A DNA stretch of 64,000 bases, taken from Escherichia phage vB_EcoS_ESCO40. This document shows positions 2,330 through 63,929 of the stretch, one piece after another (the first letter of the stretch is position 1; each line of letters opens with the position of its first letter). The DNA is taken from sequence record NC_106514.1, one strand, 5' to 3'. A program made the translations under genes and the position numbers. Under the pieces are notes generated by a model that saw nothing but the letters and a program-made list of their open reading frames with translations, was not told the DNA's origin and ran no database searches.

Positions 2330-2513
2330 AGAATATTGGGTATGTTATGGTAAAATTAAAAAGTGGAATAAGGGTCAACTTTCCGCTAAACAAGTAAAAT
2401 TTATGGCGAGATATTTGACTGATCCCACTTTCGATATTAAAAAGTTAAGTAGCTCAAACCGCGCTATTATACTTAAATTTGCTAATACTATTCGTGGTCT
2501 TTTTTATGATTAA
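2319..2513 (+). CDS. hypothetical protein (64 aa)
   Basis: ORF overlapping upstream stop; followed by a hairpin. Confidence 0.4.
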   Translation: MMNKEYWVCYGKIKKWNKGQLSAKQVKFMARYLTDPTFDIKKLSSSNRAIILKFANTIRGLFYD

Positions 2514-2521
2514 TCCGTATA

Positions 2522-2548
2522 ACCGAGTCATTTTGGCTCGGTTTTCTC
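2522..2548 (+). terminator. putative intrinsic terminator
   Basis: Stem AACCGAG/CTCGGTT with 9-nt loop followed by TTCTCT. Confidence 0.4.
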
Positions 2549-2589
2549 TGTACTCAAAGACACTGATAGCACCATCCGGAAAATTTTAC

Positions 2590-2618
2590 TTGCATGATAC
2601 TCAAAATCTTGATATAAT
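2590..2618 (+). promoter_or_regulatory. T5-type early promoter (family member P1)
   Basis: TTGCAT-17 bp-TATAAT followed by conserved initial transcribed sequence ATTTATATTGAATTGAGAGA. Confidence 0.7.
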
Positions 2619-3118
2619 ATTTATATTGAATTGAGAGACATTAGTAAAAATTGGTTTTACTAATTTTTCTTGTTTACAATCCGCGATACGGAACAGTTAG
2701 GCTGCCCCATTAAGGGTTGTTTTAACTGTTACGTGTTAGTTTTTAAACAAATAGTTAATAGAATACTTAGCGATCTGCGTCCCATAGGAACCCTGGTAAG
2801 GCCTCGAAGCAACCTAGTATGAGGTGGTTGTGAAGTGAGATGGGAGGAGTGAAAAACTACCGAGACGTGATTCTGTAAGTTATATTGCATCTAGTATGAG
2901 CTAGTATATGAAGCATTAGGTGAGCAAATCTGGCTTAGCGGCCATCCTCAAGGATTTGTGCGGTATAATGAGGCAGCAGCGCAGCGTGAAAGTGGAAGTT
3001 GCCACCCCACTTCAGTATTTGCGATTAATTTGTTGAGAAATTGACAGTAACAGTTGTTCTATTCTTTCTGAATAGTCCTAAAGAAAACTTATTTCATTTC
3101 CAACACAGGAGTATTGTT

Positions 3119-5908
3119 GTGTTTTCAATCCTACAAGGTCATGCAGGATTTCATCGCGATTTAGCCACAGGCAATTGGCGAGAAGTTAAAGCAGAAGATT
3201 ATCTTTTTGCTAAAAGATTTTCCTCAAAGCATCCTGAAGGTAAACCAGCTTCAATGCCCTTCAAGTTTGATGTAATTGACGAAGTTGATCCTCAAACCCT
3301 AGTAGAAATGCTCCCTCTTATGAGACGTTTAACGTCTGACCCTCATATCGTTGCGGTACGAGGTCGATGTCTTGCACCTAAAAATAATGTGCGGCGTAAG
3401 AAGGGCAACTTTAATGTATCTAATCCAAGTCATATAATCGCAATGGATGTGGATGGTATTGTAGATACAGGAGGTTGTAACAAGTTTGATCTTGTTGGCG
3501 TGGCTCGACATATTATTAGGATGTTAAATAGTATTAGTGAGGATATGTTTCCTCTTGATGCAGGGTTTATCGCTCATGCATCGTCTTCGGCTGGACTAAA
3601 ACCAGGTATCCGAATGCACTTAATACTAGAATCTAATGTTAAAGTTACACAGGGTCAGATCAAGTTCTTATTTACATCTATCAACGAAAGTAGTAGACAA
3701 AAGTATGGCTTTGATATTGCCGACTTAGCTTATTACTCTTCCGTACAGCTCCACTATTTCGCAGATCCTTTATTTATTGATGGTATAGTCGATCCGTTTA
3801 AAGCGGAGGGTGCTTCACGTCTGGTATTTGTTAAAGGCTCAAAAGTAAATTTACCTAATAATCTAGTTGACTATGAAACAACTAGAGGAGAGTTTAAAGA
3901 GGAATTCTACTCTTTACTCGATCAAATTAAAGGTAAAAAAGCTGCCTCTGATAAAGTAGAGGAAACTATCAGTGAGCTAGAAGAGGCTGATGATGGGGTA
4001 TACTTACGTATTATTCCAAAGCTATATCACCGAGCGTTAGAGGATGGGGTAGATTTTGGTTGGCTAGAAAAAGAAATCCGCCCAGCTTTATCAGAATATA
4101 TTGCAACTAAAGATAATAGCCGTAATATTCAGGATTATTTCAATAACGGACGGAAACAGGCATTAAAAGCCTTTGTGAATAACTCTAAGCGTGAGATCCC
4201 TGAAGTATTAAAAGGTATCCCCCTTAAAAAGCTAGAAACTAATTCACTAGAGACTGACAACTTCTTGAAATTAAATACTGTACCACCAGAAGGCTATATG
4301 ACTTTTGTAAAAGCAAGTCTAGGCACAGGTAAAACCACGGCGGTTGTGCGTTGGTTAGATTCAGGGGTTATTAAAGGTAATTTCTTAGCAATTACCAATA
4401 CTAGAGCACTGGTATCTTCAAATGCTAAGAAATTTAGTGCAGGACAATATGATAAGTCTGTAGATATGCTTAATTTTAAGCGTGGTGCTATTGACCGTAT
4501 GTCCACAACTATTCACTCTTTGCATAAATTCAAGAGTTTTATTGGTCAAATTGACGCAATCTTTATCGATGAATGTGATGCAGTAATGAATGACCTATTA
4601 TTCGCTCCGGTTGTTAAGCAACGTCGCGAGTGTATTCAGGTTCTTCGTGATATTCTTGCAACTGCAAAAATAATTATATTATCTGATGGGGATATTAGTG
4701 CAGAAACAATTGAAGCATATGGTTCTTTGATTGAGTTCGATAAACCAGTTGCATTTTACAATCACCACCGTAAAATGCTGTCAAAAGCTCATGCTTATGA
4801 GTTCCCTGATGAATCCAGTATTTGGGTTGCACTTCAGACTTCTCTAGAGATGGGTGAGAAATCTATTCTAGTATCTGATTGTGGCCCGGATGAGCTGAAT
4901 GAGAAAGGTATGGCACTGCGTCGTAATACGGGTGCGTTAGTTAAGGAAATCCATTCAAACTCTACCTCAGATGTGGATATTCGACGTATTCTGGATTACA
5001 CAACTAATGAACTAATTGATCAACAAATTGATTGCTTATTATGTAGTCCATCCGTAACGAGTGGTGTTGACTTTAACTATTTTGATAACGTATTTGTTAT
5101 TACTAGAACTAGTAATCAAGCGCCAAACATGCGTTTTCAAGCAATCAGGCGCGACCGTGGTGCTCAGAATATCTATTATTTTATTGATAAATCCACTAGT
5201 GGGTTCTCTGCTGGTTCTGAACAATATAATATTGATGAAGGTTGGCTGGAGTTAGCACAGCAGTTATATGCGCGTCGCAGGGAGCTAGAATCTAGGAACT
5301 ATACTAGTACTTTACGTTATTACTTGCTTGATCAAGGTGCAACTATTGATATTTTCAGCGAAAGCTGGGGAACTATTGAAGGTGCTGGTAAAGAGTACAC
5401 AGAAGAGCGAATCAAAGCTATTCTGCATTCAACTCCAGATTATTGTGCTCCACGTCATGCGGATGCGTATGAAGCTAAACTACTTCTTGTTCGCTATTAT
5501 CATCTTGAGTCTATTAAAGATGTAACAGTTGAGCATGTTGAACAATATATCAAAGATAAGCCGAATGATCGAGCTGCATTCTTCCATAAGATGCACGAGA
5601 TGTTCTGGGAAGATATTAAGAAGTGTTCAAATGTGACCATTAAACCATTCATAGAAGCTCTGAAAGGTAAGAAGAAGGACTTCTTCCTTAAAACAGGTCA
5701 GAGTGCTAACCCAAAATATGCTAGAATGTATCTTGGTATGATGGGTATTGGTAAAGATATGAACACGGAGAATATCGTAGACTGGTACAGAACCTATTGT
5801 AAAATCGAGTGTATGCCAATTCCTTATAAGTTCATGACTGACGAGGAAAAACATATGCACGATGAAGCAATGTCAGAGCTAGGTGCTAGAAATGACAGTG
5901 AAGAATAA
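3119..5908 (+). CDS. SF2 helicase-domain protein, putative replication initiator / origin-binding-like
   Basis: Walker A GTGKTT and DExD-like IFIDECD in central region; ORF open from 3041 (TTG); GTG at 3119 follows AGGAG by 7 nt; start uncertain. Confidence 0.6.
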   Translation: MFSILQGHAGFHRDLATGNWREVKAEDYLFAKRFSSKHPEGKPASMPFKFDVIDEVDPQTLVEMLPLMRRLTSDPHIVAVRGRCLAPKNNVRRKKGNFNVSNPSHIIAMDVDGIVDTGGCNKFDLVGVARHIIRMLNSISEDMFPLDAGFIAHASSSAGLKPGIRMHLILESNVKVTQGQIKFLFTSINESSRQKYGFDIADLAYYSSVQLHYFADPLFIDGIVDPFKAEGASRLVFVKGSKVNLPNNLVDYETTRGEFKEEFYSLLDQIKGKKAASDKVEETISELEEADDGVYLRIIPKLYHRALEDGVDFGWLEKEIRPALSEYIATKDNSRNIQDYFNNGRKQALKAFVNNSKREIPEVLKGIPLKKLETNSLETDNFLKLNTVPPEGYMTFVKASLGTGKTTAVVRWLDSGVIKGNFLAITNTRALVSSNAKKFSAGQYDKSVDMLNFKRGAIDRMSTTIHSLHKFKSFIGQIDAIFIDECDAVMNDLLFAPVVKQRRECIQVLRDILATAKIIILSDGDISAETIEAYGSLIEFDKPVAFYNHHRKMLSKAHAYEFPDESSIWVALQTSLEMGEKSILVSDCGPDELNEKGMALRRNTGALVKEIHSNSTSDVDIRRILDYTTNELIDQQIDCLLCSPSVTSGVDFNYFDNVFVITRTSNQAPNMRFQAIRRDRGAQNIYYFIDKSTSGFSAGSEQYNIDEGWLELAQQLYARRRELESRNYTSTLRYYLLDQGATIDIFSESWGTIEGAGKEYTEERIKAILHSTPDYCAPRHADAYEAKLLLVRYYHLESIKDVTVEHVEQYIKDKPNDRAAFFHKMHEMFWEDIKKCSNVTIKPFIEALKGKKKDFFLKTGQSANPKYARMYLGMMGIGKDMNTENIVDWYRTYCKIECMPIPYKFMTDEEKHMHDEAMSELGARNDSEE

Positions 5909-6898: not shown

Positions 6899-7142
6899 AC
6901 TAACTGATTTACTTAAAGATGGGGAAGTAAAAACACTATATCGCAGAAGCTGGGGTAACGATAATAACGGCTTAGTGTTACTAACTTTAGATGCTGACTC
7001 GGATGTAGCTACCCAGCATACCTGGGTAGCCGGTAACTATCCATATAGCGAGGTCGTTTCATTAACAGTATGCGAAGCTATTGCGGACGATTGGGAGGTT
7101 GCCAGCATTGATGATATGCTCGCTGTTGGCCTGGTGGAGTAA
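6891..7142 (+). CDS. hypothetical protein
   Basis: GTG start preceded by AAGGAAAA, overlapping upstream stop (GTGAGTAG); the ORF track extends to 6867. Confidence 0.4.
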   Translation: MSRLTDLLKDGEVKTLYRRSWGNDNNGLVLLTLDADSDVATQHTWVAGNYPYSEVVSLTVCEAIADDWEVASIDDMLAVGLVE

Positions 7143-7159
7143 CTACTTAAAAATTTCAG

Positions 7160-7188
7160 TTGCTTAATCCTATAATTCTTGATATAAT
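7160..7188 (+). promoter_or_regulatory. T5-type early promoter (P3)
   Basis: TTGCTT-17 bp-TATAAT. Confidence 0.7.
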
Positions 7189-7245
7189 ATTCTCATAGTT
7201 TGAAAGAACTATTCTGTTTAATTCTTAATTAAGGAAATATAAAAT

Positions 7246-7656
7246 ATGACTACTCCAACTCAGTGGACTGATGAACTGTTCGAAAAAATGTCTTCCGAAT
7301 ACGTTGCTCGTATGGAGCAATTCCCAGAGGATGAACGTCCGAGTGTTAGTATGGAAATTGTTAGTGAAATTGCCCAAGAAAATGGTGTAACTCCGAACGG
7401 TTTTCGTATGAAGCTGACTAAAGCAGGTGTGTATATCAAGAAAGCTGCTGGTTCTGCTTCTAAATCTAGCGCATCTACTGGAGAAAAAGCTTCTGGTGGT
7501 TCTCGTACCTCCAAAGCCCAAGCTCATGCCGACCTGCGTTCAGCATTCTCTGATGCTGGCTTAGCACCAGATTTTCTGGATGATGCAATTATCGACAAAC
7601 TGACCGGTAAAGCGGCCGCTCATCTGGCAGAAGCAATCCGAGCTATCACTAAGTAA
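7246..7656 (+). CDS. hypothetical abundant early protein
   Basis: AAGGA RBS; codon usage dominated by host-preferred codons (CTG, CGT, GGT); Ala/Ser-rich. Confidence 0.55.
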   Translation: MTTPTQWTDELFEKMSSEYVARMEQFPEDERPSVSMEIVSEIAQENGVTPNGFRMKLTKAGVYIKKAAGSASKSSASTGEKASGGSRTSKAQAHADLRSAFSDAGLAPDFLDDAIIDKLTGKAAAHLAEAIRAITK

Positions 7657-7693
7657 TATTTAGATAAATCCACCAACAAAAGGAACTACAGTT

Positions 7694-7990
7694 ATGACCA
7701 AAGCTGAAATTATCGCACAGTGTGAAAAATTTGGTGAGTTTTATCTTCATTACGAGAAACTTCGTCAGAAAGGAACCACGTACCTTCAGGGTACAATGGA
7801 ATTTGATCCGGCCCAAGATAAATATCTGGCTGAGCGTATTAAACGTGAACGTATTCGTAAAGCGAAAGATGATGAAATCCTTGTCTTCTCTCGTACTAAT
7901 GATAGCTTCCGTTTTATTCCTGTCGAGAAAGTTCGTCGTGTGACTAGCCTCCAATCAGAGTTAGATCGTGCTTCTCCAGTAGGCCGATAA
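7694..7990 (+). CDS. hypothetical protein (98 aa)
   Basis: AAGGA RBS; followed by a strong intrinsic terminator. Confidence 0.5.
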   Translation: MTKAEIIAQCEKFGEFYLHYEKLRQKGTTYLQGTMEFDPAQDKYLAERIKRERIRKAKDDEILVFSRTNDSFRFIPVEKVRRVTSLQSELDRASPVGR

Positions 7991-8000
7991 GAAAACAATT

Positions 8001-8022
8001 AGCCCCTATATGGGGCTTTTTG
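8001..8022 (+). terminator. intrinsic terminator
   Basis: AGCCCC-TATAT-GGGGCT hairpin followed by TTTTT. Confidence 0.7.
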
Positions 8023-8040
8023 TGTATTTGGGATATGTAA

Positions 8041-8349
8041 ATGAGCGAACAGGTAAATCAAAACTATGAAGGACACGTTGATGACCAGTCCATCATACTT
8101 TGGGAGAAGGAGGGGGAACAAGTAAGATTAACAGTATCTGAATTTCGTGGGAATCTATACATGGGTATTCGTTACTGGCTTCTTGATATTAATGATGAAT
8201 GGTTTCCAACGAAATCTGGCTTCTCTTTTCCTTACACCCTAGAAACAACATCACAGCTTTTCTATGCGTTTACACAGATTCTTAGTGAATCTGAGGTTTT
8301 ACATGAAGTACAGAAACGAGCTGAAGAACTCAAAGCCAAGAATGCCTAG
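8041..8349 (+). CDS. PC4/YdbC-like ssDNA-binding protein
   Basis: LTVSEFRGNLYMGIRYWL...WFPTKSGFSFP resembles the PC4-like fold signature; bracketed by two terminators. Confidence 0.45.
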   Translation: MSEQVNQNYEGHVDDQSIILWEKEGEQVRLTVSEFRGNLYMGIRYWLLDINDEWFPTKSGFSFPYTLETTSQLFYAFTQILSESEVLHEVQKRAEELKAKNA

Positions 8350-8366
8350 TTCTTGGCTTTTTCTTT
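8335..8366 (+). terminator. intrinsic terminator
   Basis: GCCAAGAA/TTCTTGGC stem followed by TTTTTCTTT; overlaps the stop codon. Confidence 0.7.
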
Positions 8367-8376
8367 ATAAATGTAT

Positions 8377-8405
8377 TTGCTTTCAACTCAGTTTTGTTAT
8401 ATAAT
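8377..8405 (+). promoter_or_regulatory. T5-type early promoter (P4)
   Basis: TTGCTT-17 bp-TATAAT then ATTTATATAAATTAATGAGAGG. Confidence 0.75.
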
Positions 8406-8434
8406 ATTTATATAAATTAATGAGAGGATCAATC

Positions 8435-8635
8435 ATGGCAATGACAGTAACACTTCCCAAGATTCAAGCAAAACTTAATCTACTTTCCACAGCACGTATT
8501 AATTATCAAGATAGCATAGGCACAGTAAATCAAAAAGCGTACAAAGATGCGTTTCTGAAAGAATCTGCTGATTTGATGGATATGGTTACACAATATAATA
8601 AAGAACTCAAGATGGAAATCGCCGATGATGAATAA
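8435..8635 (+). CDS. hypothetical protein
   Basis: ATG 8 nt after GAGAGGA; the track ORF from 8420 would start inside the conserved promoter leader. Confidence 0.45.
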   Translation: MAMTVTLPKIQAKLNLLSTARINYQDSIGTVNQKAYKDAFLKESADLMDMVTQYNKELKMEIADDE

Positions 8636-9599
8636 TGTAAAAGGCTTTATTAGGCGTTGTCAAGAAGCATATTATCAAGGCATGTCTTTAATCTCTGATG
8701 AGGAGTATGATTGCCTGGTAAAACGCTTCCCGTTAGAAGAAGAGATCGGGCCTAAAGGTGATATTCCACATCTGTATCGTATGTATTCTTTACAGAAAGT
8801 TTATTATAATCGTGGAGATAAACCCCCATTTAACCCCTTAGGTCAGGTAGAAACTGATAAGTTAGATGGTTGTGCAATTTCTCTGTTATATATTAACGGC
8901 GAATTTGTCCAAGCATTAACCCGTGGTAATGGTATTCTAGGGAATGATGTCACAAGCAACGTAAGATTGCTGAACATTCCTAAAAAGATTTCCCAAAAAG
9001 TACCTACTCAAATCACTGGTGAAGTTCTAATTACAAAAGAAGTAGAAAATAAACGTAACTTTGCCTCTGGTGCTATTAACCTCAAAGATAGTGATGATTT
9101 CGTACAACGCATTGGAGAAGGCGGTTTAATCTTTGTTGCTTACGGTATCCAATGTTCTGCTGAATCTGTAGGTATTACAGAAGCATACTTAAAAGATATG
9201 CTTTGGCTAGAGAATGAGAACTTCTTAACAGTTGTTAATGTGCGTTCCTTCTTTAAATGGATTCCGACGGACGGTAAAGTTGTTCGTATTAATGACAACA
9301 ACAAATTCTTCCGTGAAGGCTGGACTAATAAATTCCCTCGTGGAGCATTCGCTATTAAAGAGGATGAAGAAGGCGAAATTACAACTCTTACTAAAGTTGA
9401 ATGGCAGGTAGGGGCTTCTGGTAAAGTAACTCCAGTTGGTTATTTCGAACCGGTAATTATTGATGATGCTACAATTGTTAAGGCGACTCTTAATAACGTT
9501 GATTATATTAACTCTCTCGATCTAGAGATCGGTTGCCAGATTCGAGTGATTCGTGCTGGTGGTGTAATCCCGTGCATAGTAGAGCGAGTATACGATTAA
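8625..9599 (+). CDS. NAD-dependent DNA ligase, N-terminal fragment (Ia-like, adenylation and OB regions)
   Basis: KLDG adenylation motif (KxDG); SDEEYD Ia-like segment; ends where a Zn-finger would follow in an intact LigA. Confidence 0.8.
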   Translation: MMNNVKGFIRRCQEAYYQGMSLISDEEYDCLVKRFPLEEEIGPKGDIPHLYRMYSLQKVYYNRGDKPPFNPLGQVETDKLDGCAISLLYINGEFVQALTRGNGILGNDVTSNVRLLNIPKKISQKVPTQITGEVLITKEVENKRNFASGAINLKDSDDFVQRIGEGGLIFVAYGIQCSAESVGITEAYLKDMLWLENENFLTVVNVRSFFKWIPTDGKVVRINDNNKFFREGWTNKFPRGAFAIKEDEEGEITTLTKVEWQVGASGKVTPVGYFEPVIIDDATIVKATLNNVDYINSLDLEIGCQIRVIRAGGVIPCIVERVYD

Positions 9600-9649
9600 T
9601 ACATAACCCTTTGCTACCCATCTACCATATCGGAATTATAAAGTGGTTA

Positions 9650-9678
9650 TTGACATTTTCGCCGCTTAGGTATATACT
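9650..9678 (+). promoter_or_regulatory. sigma70 consensus-like promoter in the ligase gap
   Basis: TTGACA-17 bp-TATACT. Confidence 0.6.
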
Positions 9679-9742
9679 ATTATCATTCAGTTGAGGGATA
9701 GAAAGTTATGGCGAGGGTAAGCAAAGTTAGTTAAAATTGTAG

Positions 9743-9771
9743 TTGCTAAATGCTTAAATACTTGCTATAAT
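9743..9771 (+). promoter_or_regulatory. T5-type early promoter (P5)
   Basis: TTGCTA-17 bp-TATAAT then ATTTATATAAATTGATAAGGAAG. Confidence 0.75.
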
Positions 9772-9801
9772 ATTTATATAAATTGATAAGGAAGAAATTT
9801 G

Positions 9802-10581
9802 ATGAAAATCGAAATTCCAACACAATGTCCCTCTTGTGGTTCTAAGCTAGATCTTGTCAACGGACAATTATTCTGTCGTAATAAGTCCAACTGTCCAGCG
9901 CAATCAAGTAAGTTAATTGAGAACTTCTGTACAAAAATGAAGTTAAAGGGCTTTGGCCCGAAAACTATTGAGAAGCTGGAGCTGACGAAGATTTCAGAAC
10001 TATTTTACCTAACCGAAGAAGATTTGGTTAGAGCCGTGGGTAGCAAGGTTGCCGCTAAGTTAATTAGCGAATTAAATACTAAAGTTCGCGGAGACATTGA
10101 CTTTGGTTCAGTTCTCGGTTCTTTAGGAATCCCTCTAATTGGAGAGGTTGCAGCAAAGAAATTGTCCCAAAATTGCACCAGTTTTCAAGATGTGAGAGCT
10201 GATGGCAAAGCTGGAGAAAATTATAAAGCCTGGCTAAATTCCCCACAAGGCAAGGATGTTATCGAATTACCGTGGAAATTCACAACTGGTATTAAAGGTG
10301 CTAAAGCTGGGGTCATCATTACTGATGGTCTAGTAGCCCAGCCAAATGGAATCACGGTGTGTATTACCGGGTCTTTGCAAGATTTTGCAAATAGAACGGA
10401 TGCAACAAATTATTTAGAAGGTCTAGGGTATACTGTTAAAAAATCAGTTACCAAAGACGTTAAATACCTAATCTGTGAGGATGAATCGAAGCGTTCTTCC
10501 TCATCTTATAAGAAAGCCGAAACGAATGGGATAGAAATCCTGTCGATTAAAGAACTATTGGAGAAAAATAATAATGTCTAA
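9802..10581 (+). CDS. NAD-dependent DNA ligase, C-terminal fragment (Zn finger, HhH, BRCT-like)
   Basis: CPSCGS...CRNKSNC zinc finger at N-terminus; ITGSL BRCT-like segment; TAAGGAAG RBS 8 nt upstream. Confidence 0.75.
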   Translation: MKIEIPTQCPSCGSKLDLVNGQLFCRNKSNCPAQSSKLIENFCTKMKLKGFGPKTIEKLELTKISELFYLTEEDLVRAVGSKVAAKLISELNTKVRGDIDFGSVLGSLGIPLIGEVAAKKLSQNCTSFQDVRADGKAGENYKAWLNSPQGKDVIELPWKFTTGIKGAKAGVIITDGLVAQPNGITVCITGSLQDFANRTDATNYLEGLGYTVKKSVTKDVKYLICEDESKRSSSSYKKAETNGIEILSIKELLEKNNNV

Positions 10582-11341
10582 ACTGAACTGGAACGTAGAA
10601 GGTGTAACCGAGTCTCTGAAAGCAAAAGCCACTGCTCTGGGTGTTGATGTAATCTCTCAAGAACAAGTAGCTACTATCGCTGCTGAACTGGCCGCTGAAA
10701 CTGGCAAAGACGTTACCGCTCGCTCTGTTGGCTCTAAGCTGCGTAAAGAAGGTTTCGAAGTACAGAAAGCTAACGAAGTACAGAAATCTCCGTGGACTCC
10801 TGAGCAGGAAGCTGAACTGGTTGATTTCCTGAACGCTCATGCTGGTCAGTATACTTATGCTGAAATCGCTGCTGCTGTAGCTGGTGGTCAATTTGGTGCT
10901 AAGCAGGTACAGGGTAAGATCCTGAGTCTGGAAATGACCGCTTCTGTTAAACCAACTGAAAAAGCTGCTGCTGTTCGTTCCTTCACTCCGGATGAAGAAA
11001 CTGACTTTGTTAATCAGGTTGTTGCTGGTGCTACTATTGAAGCTATCGCTGCTCACTTCGGTCGTAATATCAAGCAGATCCGTGGTAAAGCTCTGAGTCT
11101 GCTGCGTGAAGGTCGTATCGCTGCTATGCCGGTACAGGAAACTTCAAGTGCTAAAACCCGTGAAGATCTGTTAGAAGGTCTGGATCTGGCTAATATGACC
11201 GTTGCTGAGATCGCTGAGAAAACTGGTAAGTCTGAGCGCGGTGTTAAATCTATGCTGTCTCGTCGTGGTCTGGTTGCTAAGGACTATGATGGTGCCGCTA
11301 AGCGTGCTAAACTGGATGCAAAAGCTGCGGCTGCTGAATAA
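10574..11341 (+). CDS. hypothetical abundant protein with internal repeats
   Basis: Three to four internal copies of a TxxE(I/V)AxxxG...SL-R-G module; host-preferred codon usage. Confidence 0.55.
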   Translation: MSKLNWNVEGVTESLKAKATALGVDVISQEQVATIAAELAAETGKDVTARSVGSKLRKEGFEVQKANEVQKSPWTPEQEAELVDFLNAHAGQYTYAEIAAAVAGGQFGAKQVQGKILSLEMTASVKPTEKAAAVRSFTPDEETDFVNQVVAGATIEAIAAHFGRNIKQIRGKALSLLREGRIAAMPVQETSSAKTREDLLEGLDLANMTVAEIAEKTGKSERGVKSMLSRRGLVAKDYDGAAKRAKLDAKAAAAE

Positions 11342-11358
11342 TCTGGTAAATTAAACCT

Positions 11359-11390
11359 AAGGGGAGGGGGCTATGCTCCTTCCCCTTTTT
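11359..11390 (+). terminator. putative intrinsic terminator
   Basis: AAGGGGAGG...CCTTCCCC imperfect hairpin followed by TTTTT. Confidence 0.55.
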
Positions 11391-11423
11391 GCATTTAGAA
11401 GGCACGAAAGCGTGCAAAGGAGA

Positions 11424-12896
11424 ATGACCTTGTTTAACGTGCAAGCTGTAGTGTTGAAGATGCTTCTAGCTTCAGAACAGAAGCAAATAGCATTGGAAAC
11501 ATTCTCAAAACTGCATAAAGATCATTTTAATGACGCTTTCTCCTCAATTTACCAAGCCGTCCAGAATTATTATAAAAAATATAACACAATGCCGTCCATT
11601 GACGCACTGATGCTTGAGGCTAATAGGAACGCCCGCCTTTCTCAAGCTCTAGTCGTTTTAGCTAACACTCAAATTCCAGAAGTTAGCATGGAACAGGCAC
11701 TTGAAGTCTTAGAGGCCGAGTATACACAGGATTTATTCCTGAAGCTTCTAGAAACAGACGTGCTTCAAGATTTAACAATGCTGGATCAGGGAGAAATTCT
11801 TAACCGAGTTGCCTCCCTTCACTTAAAATTAGAAGAGAAAGTAACGAATACTGGAAAAGTATTCAACGCAGATAACATGCGTATTTTCCAGAGAGAAGAA
11901 GATACCAAACTGAACTTAATCGCTCTTGGTATTTGTAATGAGTTCGATGCTCAAATTGGTTTAGCTCGCACAGAAACGTTACTGCTTGGTGGTTGGCGTG
12001 GTACTGGTAAATCCATTATCTGTTCAAACATACAGGTTCAGCAATATTTGAATGGAGATATTGCTCCATACTTCTCAATTGAGATGAAAGAACATGAAGT
12101 ATTTAGACGTAATCTAGCCATGTTAGCTGGTGTATCAGCACTAGCAATGCGTAATAATACTCTAGAAGGTGCAGCTCTGTTGAGATTAGCCAGAACTAGA
12201 GCTAGGATGTTTAATGGTGGTGAGGAGCTTTTCGATAACTTCGTTAAACAGTACACAATGGCTAAGATGAGTGATTTCTACGATATGGAAAGTAAGCTAA
12301 TAGAAGGATATGAGCTACATACTCCTATGATTATTGTTTATGATCCTGAGCTGTCTATTACAACAGTTGACGTAGAATTAAATAAATTAGTTGCTAGATA
12401 TGGGGATAAAGTTACAGTAGCTTTACTGGACTATATTAACCAAACCCGACTTCCAGACTCTAAAACCATTGATATGTATGACTGGAAAGAACAGATGGTT
12501 GTTAGCTCGTCTTTCAAATCTATCTGCCAGAAACATAACGTGGCTGGTGTAGCCCCTTACCAGATTGATCAAGATGGTAGAACACGTATGTCAAAGGGGA
12601 TTCTTGATTCCGCAGACATGGCTGCTAATCTTAATGCTGCTAAAGCTGATAATGGTCAAGGTGCTATTATGTTTGACTTCGTTAAGACCCGTTCTTCTGA
12701 TAGCGTGAAGTTTATGCCTAAAATGAACTGGGAAACCCTGCGAATGGATAACACTACCAACCTAGCAATGGAAGATATATCTCAAATGGAAGCTGAGTTC
12801 GTTATCCCTATTGAGAAGGATAAGCCAGCTCAATCTAAACGTGCTAAGAAAGACAAAGCTGAAAATTCAACAGGTGAACAGGCCAGCGATATATGA
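11424..12896 (+). CDS. DnaB-like replicative helicase
   Basis: Walker A GWRGTGKS and FSIEMKEHEVFRRNLAMLAGVS similar to DnaB motif H1a; start ambiguous (11373, 11424 or 11460). Confidence 0.7.
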   Translation: MTLFNVQAVVLKMLLASEQKQIALETFSKLHKDHFNDAFSSIYQAVQNYYKKYNTMPSIDALMLEANRNARLSQALVVLANTQIPEVSMEQALEVLEAEYTQDLFLKLLETDVLQDLTMLDQGEILNRVASLHLKLEEKVTNTGKVFNADNMRIFQREEDTKLNLIALGICNEFDAQIGLARTETLLLGGWRGTGKSIICSNIQVQQYLNGDIAPYFSIEMKEHEVFRRNLAMLAGVSALAMRNNTLEGAALLRLARTRARMFNGGEELFDNFVKQYTMAKMSDFYDMESKLIEGYELHTPMIIVYDPELSITTVDVELNKLVARYGDKVTVALLDYINQTRLPDSKTIDMYDWKEQMVVSSSFKSICQKHNVAGVAPYQIDQDGRTRMSKGILDSADMAANLNAAKADNGQGAIMFDFVKTRSSDSVKFMPKMNWETLRMDNTTNLAMEDISQMEAEFVIPIEKDKPAQSKRAKKDKAENSTGEQASDI

Positions 12897-27643: not shown

Positions 27644-30091
27644 TTAAACTTTCTCCCGCATTTGACTATCTGTTAATACTCTATTCCATATTCTAAGGTT
27701 ACGAATATGACCATACAATTTAGTTGAATCTGAAAGTCTACCGCCTATTTCTACTAGTGCGTCCGCGTCCGTTCCTTTCCATGTAAAACCGTGTGAGGTC
27801 TCACCCCTATTACCATTAACAAACGAGGTGACCTCTACATCGCCACGGAGAATAAAACCAAATACATGTGGAGAAAATTGTTTTTCAAATGAATAACCTC
27901 TGGACAGTATAGTTGATCCATCCTCAGTTACCACATACGTGTAAGGTGTAACGGAGGTTCTGTCAAATTCCGCAACAAATGCTTTTCCTCTTACGAAGTA
28001 GTGGTTGTTATCCACTATCATTGGGTATATATTATCTAAGTGAAAGCTATCCCAGTTAACACTTACCTCAGCAAGTAATGAAATATTTGTCCCGAAGAAA
28101 TTATTCCTTGCTGGTATAGTAACATAGTCTAGAGCCCTTGTTGCAGGCGTGCTTCCCGTAATAATGAAGGAGGATGCACAAAAACCCTTTTCAAATTGCG
28201 GGTTACAAAATGATATTTCATCCCCAACTTGTAAAGGCTGACCATCCACCCGACAATAATTCACCGAACCAATAGAATTTCCGCCAATCTCCACAAATTT
28301 ACACATAGCTTCAACTTTCAACCATCCGTTGTCTTCTCTATATATTCTATGTGCTATAGTCCCGCTCCCTTCTACTACAGAAGAAATTTCGCCGGTTCCG
28401 CAACTTATGACAGATCTAGCGCCGAGAATAAGTCCTCCGTCCTCACCTACTAAATAAAATTGAGGGGTAATATAGATATCCTGGCCTGCTTTTACTCGTA
28501 TGGATAAAGAGACATATTCATTTTTCTGACAGTTAATCGCATTTGCTGTTTCACAATAAAATAGGTTTGGCGTATCACCTTGACCATTTTGGTTTACAGT
28601 TGCCGTTGTGTATGTAAAACCATACTTATCAACACCATATGTAACATCGATACGATGTCTATCCGTATTTAAAGAAGCCGGGTCGTTACTGAAAGTAATG
28701 TGATTTGTCCTCTGCCCTTCAATCAAGAGTCCTTGCTTTTCAAATCTAGGCTCATCGATATTGGCAATACAAAACTCACCGTGTTTGTTTATATATGTTG
28801 CATTTGATGCGCGGGAGAAACTGACAACCTTATCCGAGGGCATTGTAATAACATCTTCACCAACTGTTATTTTCTTGTATCCTGGCGAGTAACCTGCAAG
28901 CATATCAAGCGAGTCATTAAAGGGAATCCATACGTCAGGGAATGGTTGAAGATCCGGAGCCCTGTTAGCTGCAATTTCCGCACGGTCTGCTTCTGCTTTT
29001 GCACGGTCTGCCTCTACTTTAGAGCTATTTGCACTACCAGCAGCATTGCTAGCTTGTTGCCCGGCCTCAACAGCACTATTACCTGCTTGTGTAGCAGAAG
29101 CAGCAGCTTGGTTTTTTAAAGTTGTTGTCTCAGATACCGCGCTATCCTTAATACCTTGTGTATCTGTTTTTAATTGCTCAACCTCTGCTTTTAAAGCTGT
29201 TGTCTCTGTTACAGCACTATTTTTAATGGCCTGGGTATCAGATTTTAACTGTTCGACATCCGCTTTTAAAGCTGTTGTCTCTGTTATAGCACTATTTTTA
29301 ATGGCCTGGGTATCAGATTTTAATTGTTCAACATCTGATTTAAGTCCTTGAATAGTAGTTACAGATTGGTTGGCGGAGGCTGCAGACCCTGCCGCATTAG
29401 TTTCGCTAGCCTTAGCTTTTGTTTCCGAGGTTTTTGCATTGGTTTCAGAGATTTTTGCCGCAGATGCCGATGCAGCAGCTTGCCCAGAAAATATTTCCGC
29501 CTCATTCCTAAAACCGCTAGAATCAGCTGCTGATTGAGCTGCATTAGTCTCACTGACCTTTGCATTACCCTCGCTAAGTTTTGCATCAGTAGCTGATTGA
29601 GCTGCATTAGTCTCACTTGCCTTTGCATTAGTCTCACTAATTTTTGCAGCAGCAGCTGATGCGTCAGCATTAGTTTCACTAGTCTTCGCATTAGTTTCAC
29701 TAGTCTTCGCATTAGTTTCACTAGTCTTCGCATTAGTCTCGGATATTTTAGCTGCGGCAGCGGACTCTGCAGACTTATTGGCTGACGCTGCGGACTGAGT
29801 AGCAGAGGTAGCAGACTGAGTAGCAGAAGCTTCTGAAGCTCCAGCAGAAATAGCAGCTTCCTGTTCAGAGTTCTTAGCATTAAGCTCTGAAGTCTTAGCT
29901 GCTATTTCAGAATCTTTTGCAGCCGCAGCAGACTTAGCAGCGGCCTCTATAGAGGATACTAACTCATTAGCAGTAATAGAGCTAATAGAATTTCCAAGAG
30001 TTACTGTGTATCTAGGAAATTTACTAGCAGTAGCTTTAGTATCATCAATATTTAATATTTGTTGTACAATAATCTTAGTAGTTATTGCCAT
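27644..30091 (-). CDS. L-shaped tail fibre protein, proximal part (repeat-rich shaft)
   Basis: N-terminal MAITTKII... then SETNAK heptad repeats and 24-aa DVEQLKSDTQAIKNSA repeats. Confidence 0.7.
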   Translation of the reverse strand: MAITTKIIVQQILNIDDTKATASKFPRYTVTLGNSISSITANELVSSIEAAAKSAAAAKDSEIAAKTSELNAKNSEQEAAISAGASEASATQSATSATQSAASANKSAESAAAAKISETNAKTSETNAKTSETNAKTSETNADASAAAAKISETNAKASETNAAQSATDAKLSEGNAKVSETNAAQSAADSSGFRNEAEIFSGQAAASASAAKISETNAKTSETKAKASETNAAGSAASANQSVTTIQGLKSDVEQLKSDTQAIKNSAITETTALKADVEQLKSDTQAIKNSAVTETTALKAEVEQLKTDTQGIKDSAVSETTTLKNQAAASATQAGNSAVEAGQQASNAAGSANSSKVEADRAKAEADRAEIAANRAPDLQPFPDVWIPFNDSLDMLAGYSPGYKKITVGEDVITMPSDKVVSFSRASNATYINKHGEFCIANIDEPRFEKQGLLIEGQRTNHITFSNDPASLNTDRHRIDVTYGVDKYGFTYTTATVNQNGQGDTPNLFYCETANAINCQKNEYVSLSIRVKAGQDIYITPQFYLVGEDGGLILGARSVISCGTGEISSVVEGSGTIAHRIYREDNGWLKVEAMCKFVEIGGNSIGSVNYCRVDGQPLQVGDEISFCNPQFEKGFCASSFIITGSTPATRALDYVTIPARNNFFGTNISLLAEVSVNWDSFHLDNIYPMIVDNNHYFVRGKAFVAEFDRTSVTPYTYVVTEDGSTILSRGYSFEKQFSPHVFGFILRGDVEVTSFVNGNRGETSHGFTWKGTDADALVEIGGRLSDSTKLYGHIRNLRIWNRVLTDSQMREKV
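29115..29335. repeat. 72-bp tandem repeat (about 3 copies) inside the fibre gene
   Basis: Near-identical units CTTTTAAAGCTGTTGTCTCTGTTA...CAGATTTTAA read directly. Confidence 0.8.
29667..29742. repeat. 21-bp tandem repeat (3.5 copies) inside the fibre gene
   Basis: GCATTAGTTTCACTAGTCTTC repeated head to tail, encoding TSETNAK heptads. Confidence 0.85.
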
Positions 30092-59754: not shown

Positions 59755-59805
59755 ATAAGCATAAATTAATGAGATAATAATAATTATAAGAAATCGTAAC
59801 CAATA

Positions 59806-59897
59806 GAAATAATAACTATAAAAATAATAACTATAAAAATAATAACTATAAAAATAATAACTATAAAAATAATAACTATAAAAATAATAACTATAAG
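59806..59897. repeat. 15-bp tandem repeat, about 6 copies
   Basis: AATAACTATAAAAAT repeated head to tail. Confidence 0.9.
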
Positions 59898-59934
59898 AAA
59901 CTATCGGCCTAAGTGAGAACCACTATCATTTAAG

Positions 59935-62954: not shown

Positions 62955-63064
62955 ATACTGTATAAATATACAGTAGAATAACCTGGGGATAAGTCTGTGG
63001 ATAACGCTTCAAAATGGCTAGGATTCTGTCAAGGCAAATCGTGCTGTTGATAAGTCTGTGGATA
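62955..63064 (-). promoter_or_regulatory. composite element B: LexA-box-like palindrome plus two DnaA boxes, inverted relative to element A
   Basis: TACTGTATAAATATACAGTA at 62955-62974 (one mismatch to the SOS-box consensus as recalled); TGTGGATAA at 62995-63003 and 63056-63064. Confidence 0.55.
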
Positions 63065-63093
63065 ACCTAAATAACAGTGTTTCTCACTTCCAT

Positions 63094-63290
63094 TCTTAAA
63101 TGAGAATCATTATCATTCGCATTCCACTATCTAACCGATAATCATTTCCTTTCTTAAATGAGAATCATTTCACTTTTTGAATAGTTCTCATTCTCTTTCT
63201 TAAATGAGAATCAATCTCATTTCATTTTCTAAATGCGAATTATTATCATTCTCATTCCGCTTTTTAAATGATAATGATTCTCATTATCAT
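63094..63290. repeat. array of about 5 AT-rich direct repeats (TCTTAAATGAGAATCAT-type)
   Basis: Copies at about 63094, 63153, 63198, 63227 and 63262; the last contains GATAATGATTCTCATTATC, 17 of 19 matches to the Fur-box consensus as recalled. Confidence 0.7.
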
Positions 63291-63328
63291 TCGCATTCAG
63301 GCGAGCAGGGCAATTGCCCTGCGCTTTT

Positions 63329-63929
63329 GTGCAAATCCGACAATTGCTCCAAGGGTTACGTGCTGGCGTGTATGTGCAAATCCGACAATTTTTGGTAGTG
63401 TGCAAATCCGACCCGAAAAATTTTTATAGTGTGCGAATCCGACAATGAATTTTCCTAAAAACTCCAGCAATCACGAACTGCGTTCGAATCCTGTGGGATA
63501 TGTGCAAATCCGACACGGTTTTTCTAGGATTAAGATGTGCGAATCCGATGAAGTTTTTGTGAGTTCGATTGGAAGGTGTGTGATTGTATGGGTTTGTGGA
63601 GAAGGTGAGAGAGCGAGAGAAATTTGGTGGGCTAGAAGGATGTGGTCGCAGGATTGGTGTGGAGCACCTGGTTTGCGGGGATTTTGGGGAAGAGTTGAGA
63701 TAATTTGGGGAAATTTGAGATAGGTGCAGAAAAAGTAAAATTTTATTAGCAAAATGGGGCAAAATAGCTTGACAAGTGAAAATTCTTGTGGCTCTAAAAA
63801 CTCAGGCAATCATGGGCCTTCGGCCCGAAATAATGCTGCTATTTTCAGGAGAGTAAGAGTTCCTAAAAACTTAGGCGTTTGTGCAAATCCGACCATAAAT
63901 TTCTAGAAACACAATGTGCGAATCCGACA
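63329..63929 (+). repeat. eight dispersed direct copies of a 14-bp motif GTGC(A/G)AATCCGA(C/T)
   Basis: Copies at 63329, 63374, 63400, 63431, 63502, 63537, 63881 and 63916, all in the same orientation, each followed within 12 nt by a T-run. Confidence 0.85.
63575..63730 (+). other. G+T-rich strand-asymmetric tract
   Basis: About 150 nt almost devoid of C on the plus strand (GGTGTGTGATTGTATGGGTTTGTGGAGAAGGTGAGAGAGCGAGAG...). Confidence 0.7.

Follow-up and report, generated by a model that had tools for sequence, protein, structure and literature searches.

That bacteriophage T5 divides an NAD+-dependent DNA ligase between two genes was already described with its genome (Wang et al. 2005, as cited in PMC1684257), and a LigN protein cut C-terminally to mimic the T5 split, so that the Ia, adenylation and OB domains remain, was found to retain self-adenylation (PMC1684257). 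The structure of such an enzyme on DNA comes from a homologue of another genus, Priunavirus: PDB entries 9HU3 and 9I5I, released in January 2026 under the title 'PR1 phage heterodimeric DNA ligase in complex with 21-mer nicked DNA containing phage nick sequence', hold a two-chain enzyme whose chains are 100% identical to proteins of Providencia phage vB_PreS_PR1 and whose split position is the one described below.

The 64-kb stretch of NC_106514.1 analyzed here (the window) comes from a T5-like phage of the family Demerecviridae. A preliminary description of its ligase locus had read it as an NAD-dependent ligase encoded by two genes, and both the Pfam domains of the two products and the annotation of ligase subunits A and B in T5, DT57C and hundreds of relatives bear this out. 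The gene order (ligA, gap, ligB, D5, DnaB-like helicase) is that of the T5-type split ligase [Table 1], the region is 98% identical to that of Salmonella phage S130/S131, and 428 phage records span at least 80% of it. Compared to T5 itself (T5.116/T5.117, AAS77162/AAS77163; locus L012), the genes, their order and the split point are the same, with few amino-acid substitutions (98.8% identity for LigA and 98.1% for LigB); T5, however, is devoid of the 71-residue ORF that precedes ligA in NC_106514.1. Between LigB and its counterpart in Escherichia phage vB_EcoS_ESCO40, identity is 100%. The two-gene ligase and the promoters in its gap are thus already known, a real but ordinary trait of T5-like phages. 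What the present analysis adds is the conservation of the split and of the promoter pair throughout the family, the low variability of the promoter block and the existence of a variable slot immediately after ligA.

Table 1 Features of the ligase locus of NC_106514.1 (positions are those of the window)
Feature	Position	Strand	Basis and remarks
Terminator-like hairpin, 5' of the promoter at 8366	8332-8360		Terminator scan
Early-family promoter, heads the operon containing ligA	8366-8419	+	Reference copy of repeat family D3; in T5, a promoter without a name is annotated directly 5' of ligA
71-aa ORF of unknown function	8420-8635	+	phrog_8267 (E = 7.7e-43); stop overlaps ligA start
ligA, ligase subunit A (putative Ia motif, nucleotidyltransferase with KLDG, OB fold)	8625-9599	+	Pfam; 9hu3_A; alignment with E. 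coli LigA
Variable slot directly 3' of the ligA stop	9600-9629	+	Genes inserted in relatives: GIY-YIG, NADAR, DprA-like, small ORFs
Promoter PK28b	9630-9704	+	Promoter scan; T5 annotation; conservation
Promoter PK28a	9723-9797	+	Promoter scan; repeat family; T5 annotation; conserved in distant genera
ligB, ligase subunit B (Cys4 zinc finger, HhH, BRCT)	9802-10581	+	Pfam; 9hu3_B; AF2 model
D5 DNA-binding protein gene	10574-11341	+	Start overlaps ligB stop (ATGTCTAA)
Terminator-like hairpin, 13-bp stem and T run	11359-11387	+	Terminator scan; would end the PK28-ligB-D5 unit

The two subunits and the position of the split

The ligA product (324 residues) matches the Pfam families DNA_ligase_aden (PF01653; 2.3e-23) and DNA_ligase_OB (PF03120; 3.8e-22) as well as chain A of 9HU3 (E = 5e-103). 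Its KLDG adenylation motif, at residues 79-82 with the lysine at K79, is aligned with K115-G118 of E. coli LigA, as befits a member of the LigA family. Further upstream, residues 15-31 read AYYQGMSLISDEEYDCL, a stretch conserved in 9hu3_A that resembles the E. coli Ia motif as judged by eye rather than with a profile, and which may correspond to the domain Ia motif for NMN/NAD+ recognition (YY/H...SD.EYD.L).

The second ORF encodes 260 residues from a TTG at 9799 or 259 from the ATG at 9802. The latter is the likely start of LigB: a Shine-Dalgarno (SD) sequence, AAGGAAG (9788-9794), is found 7 nt 5' of this ATG, the T5 annotation begins at the same codon, and chain B of the PDB entry starts with MKIQIP. 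Cysteines at residues 9, 12, 25 and 31 counted from the ATG (10, 13, 26 and 32 in the longer ORF) align with C408, C411, C426 and C432 of E. coli LigA and are invariant, four out of four, across 28 LigB homologues. HHH_2 and BRCT matches lie downstream of this Cys4 zinc finger, so that the order OB, zinc finger, HhH and BRCT is preserved over the two genes. LigB matches chain B of 9HU3 (E = 1e-78), which is also the best structural match of its AF2 model in Foldseek.

Alignment to E. coli LigA (2OWO) sets D324, the last residue of LigA, opposite D398 and the first cysteine of LigB opposite C408. The split thus falls between the equivalents of D398 and T399, in the linker joining the OB fold to the zinc finger, and the alignment runs on contiguously from one chain to the other with no residues lost or added; the ligA stop codon occupies 9597-9599. 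In line with what had been proposed, the N-terminal half carrying KLDG and the OB fold ends before the zinc finger, the second ORF opens with it, and the comparison with unsplit LigA holds across the junction. An identical break was found in 39 of the 39 related loci examined, and the split ligase together with its tandem promoter pair is kept across the Demerecviridae, even in Vibrio phages, where protein identity has fallen to about 50%.

The PR1 chains are 53-54% identical to LigA and LigB (tblastn, Foldseek), and the gap between their genes contains tandem promoters as in NC_106514.1. By analogy with entry 9HU3, we infer that LigA and LigB of NC_106514.1 assemble as a complex. In such a complex, LigA would supply the putative NAD-sensing Ia motif, the adenylation domain with its catalytic lysine and the OB fold, LigB would supply the zinc finger, the HhH DNA-binding domain and the BRCT domain, and the separate polypeptides, joined non-covalently around the nick, would rebuild the C-shaped clamp that one-piece bacterial LigA forms.

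Promoters in the gap and their expected effect on transcription

The gap (9600-9801, 202 nt) holds two sigma70-type promoter-like sites. PK28b reads TTGACA-17-TATACT (-35 at 9650-9655, -10 at 9673-9678), agrees with the consensus at 11 of 12 positions and is followed by the SD-like TTGAGGGA. PK28a reads TTGCTA-17-TATAAT (-35 at 9743-9748, -10 at 9766-9771), with a TG extension at 9763-9764 and the SD AAGGAAG further downstream; it belongs to the repeated T5 early-promoter family, whose copies in the window are at 2579, 6123, 8366, 9732, 18613 and 52779 (repeat family D3), with a further one at 7150 (D6). The consensus sigma70 promoter and the early-family promoter claimed for the gap are accordingly both there (9650-9678 and 9743-9771), and T5 (AY543070) carries the features 'promoter P-K 28b' and 'promoter P-K 28a' on the same sequence, the gap being 100% identical to that of T5 over 221 nt. 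An 8-codon mini-ORF (MARVSKVS, 9709-9735) located behind the SD-like motif 3' of PK28b was considered and dropped, as it is not conserved in the Klebsiella, Pectobacterium, Providencia and Vibrio relatives.

Matches to at least 11 of the 12 consensus positions number five on both strands of the window, versus 2.4 in Markov simulations, and about 0.004 would be expected by chance within the 200 nt of the gap, making a chance match of this quality unlikely there. A generic promoter scan of 7000-12000, on the other hand, returned no excess of sites (10 versus 11.2 in shuffled sequences), so that it is conservation and the T5 annotation, rather than the scan by itself, that support the promoters. 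In genera sharing 50-70% protein identity, PK28b and PK28a are conserved while the spacers have diverged; PK28b is kept in phages of Klebsiella, Pectobacterium, Providencia, Proteus and Vibrio, and PK28a likewise in distant genera. Over 9629-9828, nucleotide diversity (pi) amounts to 0.005, versus 0.04-0.12 in ligA, and 0-4 differences were counted across the 174-nt promoter block, for a flanking dS of 0.1-0.9. Variability of the block is roughly one tenth of that of the coding DNA on either side. The names PK28a and PK28b reportedly come from functional promoter selections carried out in the Bujard laboratory in the 1980s; our literature search returned no usable paper on the PK28 promoters or on a heterodimeric or split ligase.

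Both sites would act as strong early promoters read by the host sigma70 RNA polymerase. Since the start of D5 overlaps the ligB stop, D5 and ligB are placed in one transcription unit. The terminator scan detected no terminator-like hairpin 3' of ligA, and the fold of the first part of the gap is unremarkable (z = 0.03); ligB and D5 should therefore receive read-through from the upstream promoter in addition to transcripts from both gap promoters. ligA, for its part, has one promoter, no obvious SD of its own and a start overlapping the stop of the upstream ORF. Given this layout and the extra promoters serving ligB and D5, LigB and D5 are probably made in excess over LigA, and the unequal expression of the ligase halves put forward in the preliminary description is plausible. 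The literature search covering this point yielded no T5 transcriptome, no data on LigA:LigB stoichiometry and no published test of an expression difference. Read-through after ligA is not universal in the family: in Providencia phage PR1, the depositors predict a terminator right after ligA, where NC_106514.1 has none. The main role of the gap promoters may also be to drive D5 rather than to set the LigA:LigB ratio.

A more far-reaching proposal is that the split in the OB/zinc-finger linker and the PK28b/PK28a cassette form one ancestral module kept by selection across all Demerecviridae, which uncouples the doses of LigA and LigB; that LigB, made in surplus and with its translation coupled to that of the abundant D5, might have a role independent of ligation, such as binding or guarding programmed single-strand nicks; and that the slot between ligA and PK28b is a recurrent landing pad for mobile or accessory genes (GIY-YIG, NADAR, DprA-like). 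Taken as a whole, this proposal is speculative and rather improbable.

Alternative explanations of the split

The same two ORFs could in principle yield a single-chain ligase by way of a self-splicing intron, translational bypass of the T4 gene 60 type, a frameshift or a split intein. The two are collinear and encoded on one strand, their products can be aligned with one-piece LigA without a break, and in Salmonella phage TUMS_E3 the two halves even share a frame. The one-piece tblastn match in TUMS_E3 was nevertheless rejected as a fused ligase, the in-frame gap being interrupted by a TAA stop and flanked by two annotated CDSs. Scanning 8300-10900 against Rfam at E <= 10 returned chance-level matches only, with no intron or known RNA among them, and the 5' part of the gap has no fold above background (z as above). 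Among relatives, the gap varies from 192 to 1050 nt and contains unrelated ORFs, the reading frames of the halves are offset by 0, 1 or 2, and a stop codon follows ligA in all of them. Moreover, ligB is provided with an SD and an ATG of its own, no residues extend beyond the E. coli LigA alignment and there is thus no room for intein halves, no intein family occurs among the Pfam matches, and the PDB entry contains two separate chains. A single-chain product is so improbable as to be effectively refuted, and the earlier statement that the gap is not a group I intron stands, with no Rfam intron family matched and a frame relation that varies among relatives. Less credible still is the idea that the split reflects pseudogenisation, or a sequencing or assembly error, in a one-piece ligase gene, in favor of which there is the bare presence of two ORFs and nothing more. 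The arrangement is common to more than 400 independently sequenced phage genomes; the LigB homologues among the 120 matches listed are 247-263 residues long, except for two truncated entries (190 and 214 residues); and the gap consists of 202 nt of conserved promoter sequence, not of a point lesion. Purifying selection on the two halves is strong (dN/dS mostly 0.03-0.14), with values of 0.03-0.06 in nine of ten comparisons for ligA, the tenth (0.195, against locus L030) being the highest valid value, and of 0.07-0.14 for ligB in pairwise comparisons with relatives; a ligB value of 0.60 against locus L026 was set aside as the artefact of a 9-nt indel within an ungapped comparison. The comparative data thus refute this explanation, including the sequencing error that had been named as a ground for refuting the split.

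A mobile origin of the split is regarded as unlikely. According to this explanation, a free-standing homing endonuclease or another cassette landed in the OB/zinc-finger linker of a one-piece ligase, brought or recruited the promoters and was later lost in most lineages including NC_106514.1, leaving promoters with no role in stoichiometry. The segment that separates the ligA stop from PK28b is indeed variable. In Salmonella phage SP3 and one other phage, a GIY-YIG endonuclease ORF lies exactly between the ligA stop and PK28b, and next to it the last ~230 nt of ligA fall to 65-78% identity while the downstream side remains at 100%, a drop resembling a co-conversion or target-immunity tract; NADAR, DprA-like and small ORFs occupy the slot in other relatives. 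The endonuclease is present, however, in only 3 of ~440 close records and is absent from every distant genus examined; more probably, it recently entered a gap that was already there and did not cause the split. The gap ORFs of Vibrio phages were rejected as homing endonucleases, one being DprA-like and the others of unknown function, and the gap of NC_106514.1 contains no ORF of at least 30 residues lying wholly inside it, the overlapping ones crossing a ligase gene boundary and matching nothing. The element that is conserved is the promoter pair, not the inserts. A mobile origin, furthermore, bears on how the split arose and is compatible with a heterodimeric ligase as the present function. 

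Altogether, the locus very probably encodes an NAD+-dependent DNA ligase of the heterodimeric type characteristic of T5-like phages, with tandem promoters rather than an intron in the gap and an expected excess of ligB and D5 expression.

Comparison with one-piece and other divided enzymes

As a discovery the locus carries little weight, the split having been annotated since 2005 and the promoter names going back to much earlier promoter work. T5-like phages nonetheless offer a natural case in which two chains do the work of an essential multidomain enzyme, and the comparative data indicate that the promoter pair equals the split in age and in degree of conservation and that the site attracts mobile genes. 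They also frame a testable question, namely whether subunit dosage or a separate role of LigB keeps the gene split.

Like the phage pair, in which the Ia motif is putative, E. coli LigA (2OWO) has the order Ia, nucleotidyltransferase, OB, zinc finger, HhH and BRCT, the lysine of KxDG and a Cys4 finger. It differs in being a single chain of 671 residues, as opposed to 324 and 259, and shares about 25-30% identity with the phage proteins, whose putative Ia region and nucleotidyltransferase region are shorter. In T4-like phages, free-standing homing endonucleases have given rise to genes in pieces, such as nrdA of Aeromonas phage Aeh1, which is split by mobE, and the T4 topoisomerase genes gp39/gp60. 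These resemble the T5-type ligase in that essential enzymes of DNA metabolism are split at a domain boundary and their products reassemble, and the gap of SP3 carries a GIY-YIG gene. In contrast to the T4-like cases, NC_106514.1 and almost all of its relatives are devoid of an endonuclease gene between the halves, conserved promoters filling the gap instead, and the split of the T5-type ligase is family-wide and ancient, not strain-specific.

A ligase divided ahead of its zinc finger

The ligA and ligB ORFs lie on the same strand and are separated by 202 nt [Table]. LigA matched Pfam PF01653 (adenylation domain of NAD-dependent ligases, 2.3e-23) and PF03120 (ligase OB fold, 3.8e-22), while HhH and BRCT families were matched by LigB, whose N-terminus, MMKIEIPTQCPSCGS...C...C, provides four cysteines. 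Upon alignment of the concatenated products with the unsplit E. coli LigA (2OWO) using phmmer, the alignment crossed the junction without interruption, LigA D324 pairing with D398, LigB continuing from T399, and its first cysteine matching C408. The break thus falls exactly in the linker between the OB fold and the zinc finger, with nothing lost or added, as expected from the preliminary description of a ligase split into two ORFs before its zinc finger.

Features of the ligase locus and inserts found downstream of ligA in T5-like relatives
Feature	Genome	Coordinates	Strand	Description
ligA ORF	window	8625-9599	+	324 aa; adenylation and OB domains
PK28b	window	9650-9678	+	TTGACA-17-TATACT; 11/12 consensus positions (consensus scan)
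PK28a	window	9743-9771	+	TTGCTA-17-TATAAT; TG extension (consensus scan)
ligB ORF	window	9799/9802-10581	+	260/259 aa; HhH and BRCT; four cysteines
SP3 insert	L032 (MG387042)	2687-3343		218-aa GIY-YIG endonuclease ORF between ligA stop and PK28b
Stubb insert	L038 (Proteus phage)	2653-3309		NADAR-domain ORF (1.8e-31)
PM135 insert	Proteus phage PM135			60-aa ORF
Cody insert	L003 (Vibrio phage)	2469-3361		DprA-like gene (phrog_768, 6e-49) and 112-aa ORF
PG07, D237 inserts	Vibrio phages PG07, D237			other small ORFs

The split occurred at the same residue in all relatives examined, including Tequintavirus and Epseptimavirus, Klebsiella phages (71% protein identity), Pectobacterium, Providencia and Proteus phages (54-61%), and three lineages of Vibrio phages (~50%). 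The best 120 LigB homologues in a collection of 5.8 billion proteins were stand-alone proteins of 247-263 aa, except for two truncated entries (190 and 214 aa), and the closest one-piece phage ligases were only ~30% identical. With dN/dS values of 0.03-0.06 for ligA in nine out of ten comparisons (0.195 against the related locus L030) and 0.07-0.14 for ligB, both genes are, judging from these ratios, under strong purifying selection.

Splicing, bypassing, frameshifting or an intein could in principle reunite the two products, and a sequencing error could have created the break. The frame offset between ligA and ligB, however, was 0, 1 or 2 in different phages, the stop codon after ligA was kept in each, and the ligase of Providencia phage vB_PreS_PR1 was solved as two chains; together, these observations exclude all five explanations. 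An Rfam search of the ligase region further returned no family match even at E = 10, in agreement with the earlier contention that the gap is not a group I intron.

The promoter pair and expression of ligB

Matches to at least 11 of the 12 promoter consensus positions are rare, numbering five on both strands of the 64 kb, versus 2.4 in simulations. PK28a belongs to a repeated promoter family of ~54 nt (repeat families D3 and D6 together), with other copies at 2579, 6123, 7150, 8366, 18613 and 52779. Window 9590-9810, encompassing the gap and both gene ends, is 100% identical to T5 (AY543070), whose record annotates 'P-K 28b' and 'P-K 28a' in the gap. The two promoters previously noted from sequence are thus these named T5 early promoters.

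Among 27 close relatives, nucleotide diversity was 0.005 in 9629-9828 versus 0.04-0.12 across ligA. The 174-nt promoter block displayed 0-4 differences against a flanking synonymous divergence of 0.1-0.9. This block consists essentially of two full-length T5-type promoters, each with its upstream A+T tract and initial transcribed region. The spacers and the sequence between the promoters have diverged in distant genera, yet the two hexamer pairs are kept at the same spacing directly upstream of ligB [TTGAC(A/G)-17-TATA(C/A)T, followed ~90 nt on by TTGC(T/C)...TG.TATAAT], even in the Vibrio phages Cody, PG07 and D237. A Shine-Dalgarno (SD)-like motif, TTGAGGGA (9686-9700), lies ~10-17 nt past the -10 element of PK28b; it is kept in Klebsiella and Vibrio (Cody) relatives and replaced by TTTGGGGA/TTTGGGA in others. 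No conserved ORF follows this motif, which may be a relic ribosome-binding site or a 5′ mRNA-stabilising element.

We propose that the early promoter at 8366-8419 drives ligA. The gene has no obvious SD, and its start overlaps the stop of a 71-aa ORF (8420-8635; phrog_8267, unknown function) located between this promoter and ligA; T5 lacks this ORF, its promoter abutting ligA directly. Since no terminator-like hairpin was found 3′ of ligA, read-through into ligB should occur, to which PK28b and PK28a would add further ligB transcripts. ligB is preceded by the SD AAGGAAG, 7 nt upstream of the ATG at 9802, its stop and the start of D5, a DNA-binding protein gene, overlap (ATGTCTAA), and a strong terminator-like hairpin lies 3′ of D5 (11359-11387). 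Read-through, two extra promoters, a good SD and the stop/start overlap suggest that LigB and D5 are probably produced in excess over LigA, and D5 may benefit from the gap promoters no less than ligB. No other 100-nt stretch of the 7.8-kb alignment varies as little as the ligB/D5 junction (10529-10628; pi = 0.0015), which would fit translational coupling or a constraint of another kind. LigA and LigB would come together on nicked DNA in the manner of 9HU3; we infer this for the pair encoded here, of which gene structure, conservation and homology were observed.

A variable slot after ligA

In some relatives, the stretch from the ligA stop to the first promoter (window 9600-9629) is occupied by unrelated inserts [Table]. 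The GIY-YIG ORF was present in this slot in two phages, one of them Salmonella phage SP3, and was found in only three phage records. In SP3, identity to the window falls to 65-78% over the final ~230 nt of ligA, beside the endonuclease gene, versus 98-100% downstream of the insert. Such a pattern is what one expects close to a free-standing homing endonuclease, and it looks like a co-conversion or immunity tract; it shows that mobile genes use the site. The rarity of the endonuclease, however, argues for a recent arrival and against a role as cause of the family-wide split. The NADAR ORF was restricted to Stubb, other Proteus T5-like phages being devoid of it; that a gene of NAD/ADP-ribose chemistry lies beside an NAD-dependent ligase may not be accidental.

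Klebsiella phage phi1_146058 carries an HNH endonuclease gene (4256-4762 of locus L006) as an insert, with D5 on one side and the DnaB-like helicase gene on the other, and the alignment of close relatives has indels at the matching site (window 11368-11430), which suggests that this replication module has a second slot for mobile genes. Elsewhere, the window harbors a tandem array of ~8 copies of a 15-nt A+T-rich unit at 59788-59907 (ATAAAAATAATAACT), several families of imperfect tandem repeats of 63-86 nt at 29114-29793, probably a repetitive coding region, and a cluster of short iteron-like direct repeats at 63062-63927 (TGTGCAAATCCGACA; AATGAGAATCATTATCATTC; ...TTTCTTAAATGAGAAT) that could bind proteins or mark an origin or a region associated with the terminal repeats.

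Relation to the known T5 and PR1 ligases

The region shares 98% identity with Salmonella phages S130/S131, and 443 phage records, nearly all T5-like, matched it. According to PMC1684257, the split ligase was described in the T5 genome report (Wang et al. 2005) and prompted a truncation test in which a Haloferax LigN fragment (Ia, adenylation and OB) still self-adenylated; T5 ligase subunits A and B are routinely so named elsewhere (PMC3632103, PMC4319617). The top PDB matches were chain A of 9hu3/9i5i (339 aa, E = 5e-103) and its partner chain B (248 aa, E = 1e-78), whose sequences are those encoded by PR1 ligA and ligB (100% identity), and 9hu3_B was the closest structure to an AlphaFold model of LigB (pLDDT 81.7). 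9hu3, released 2026-01-14, is entitled 'PR1 phage heterodimeric DNA ligase in complex with 21-mer nicked DNA containing phage nick sequence'. The preliminary observation is confirmed and its interpretation supported. What we add is minor: the promoter pair is conserved family-wide, a variable slot follows ligA, and a GIY-YIG ORF with a divergent tract beside it is occasionally inserted there; the locus itself is already known at each level, from gene annotation to named promoters and solved structure.
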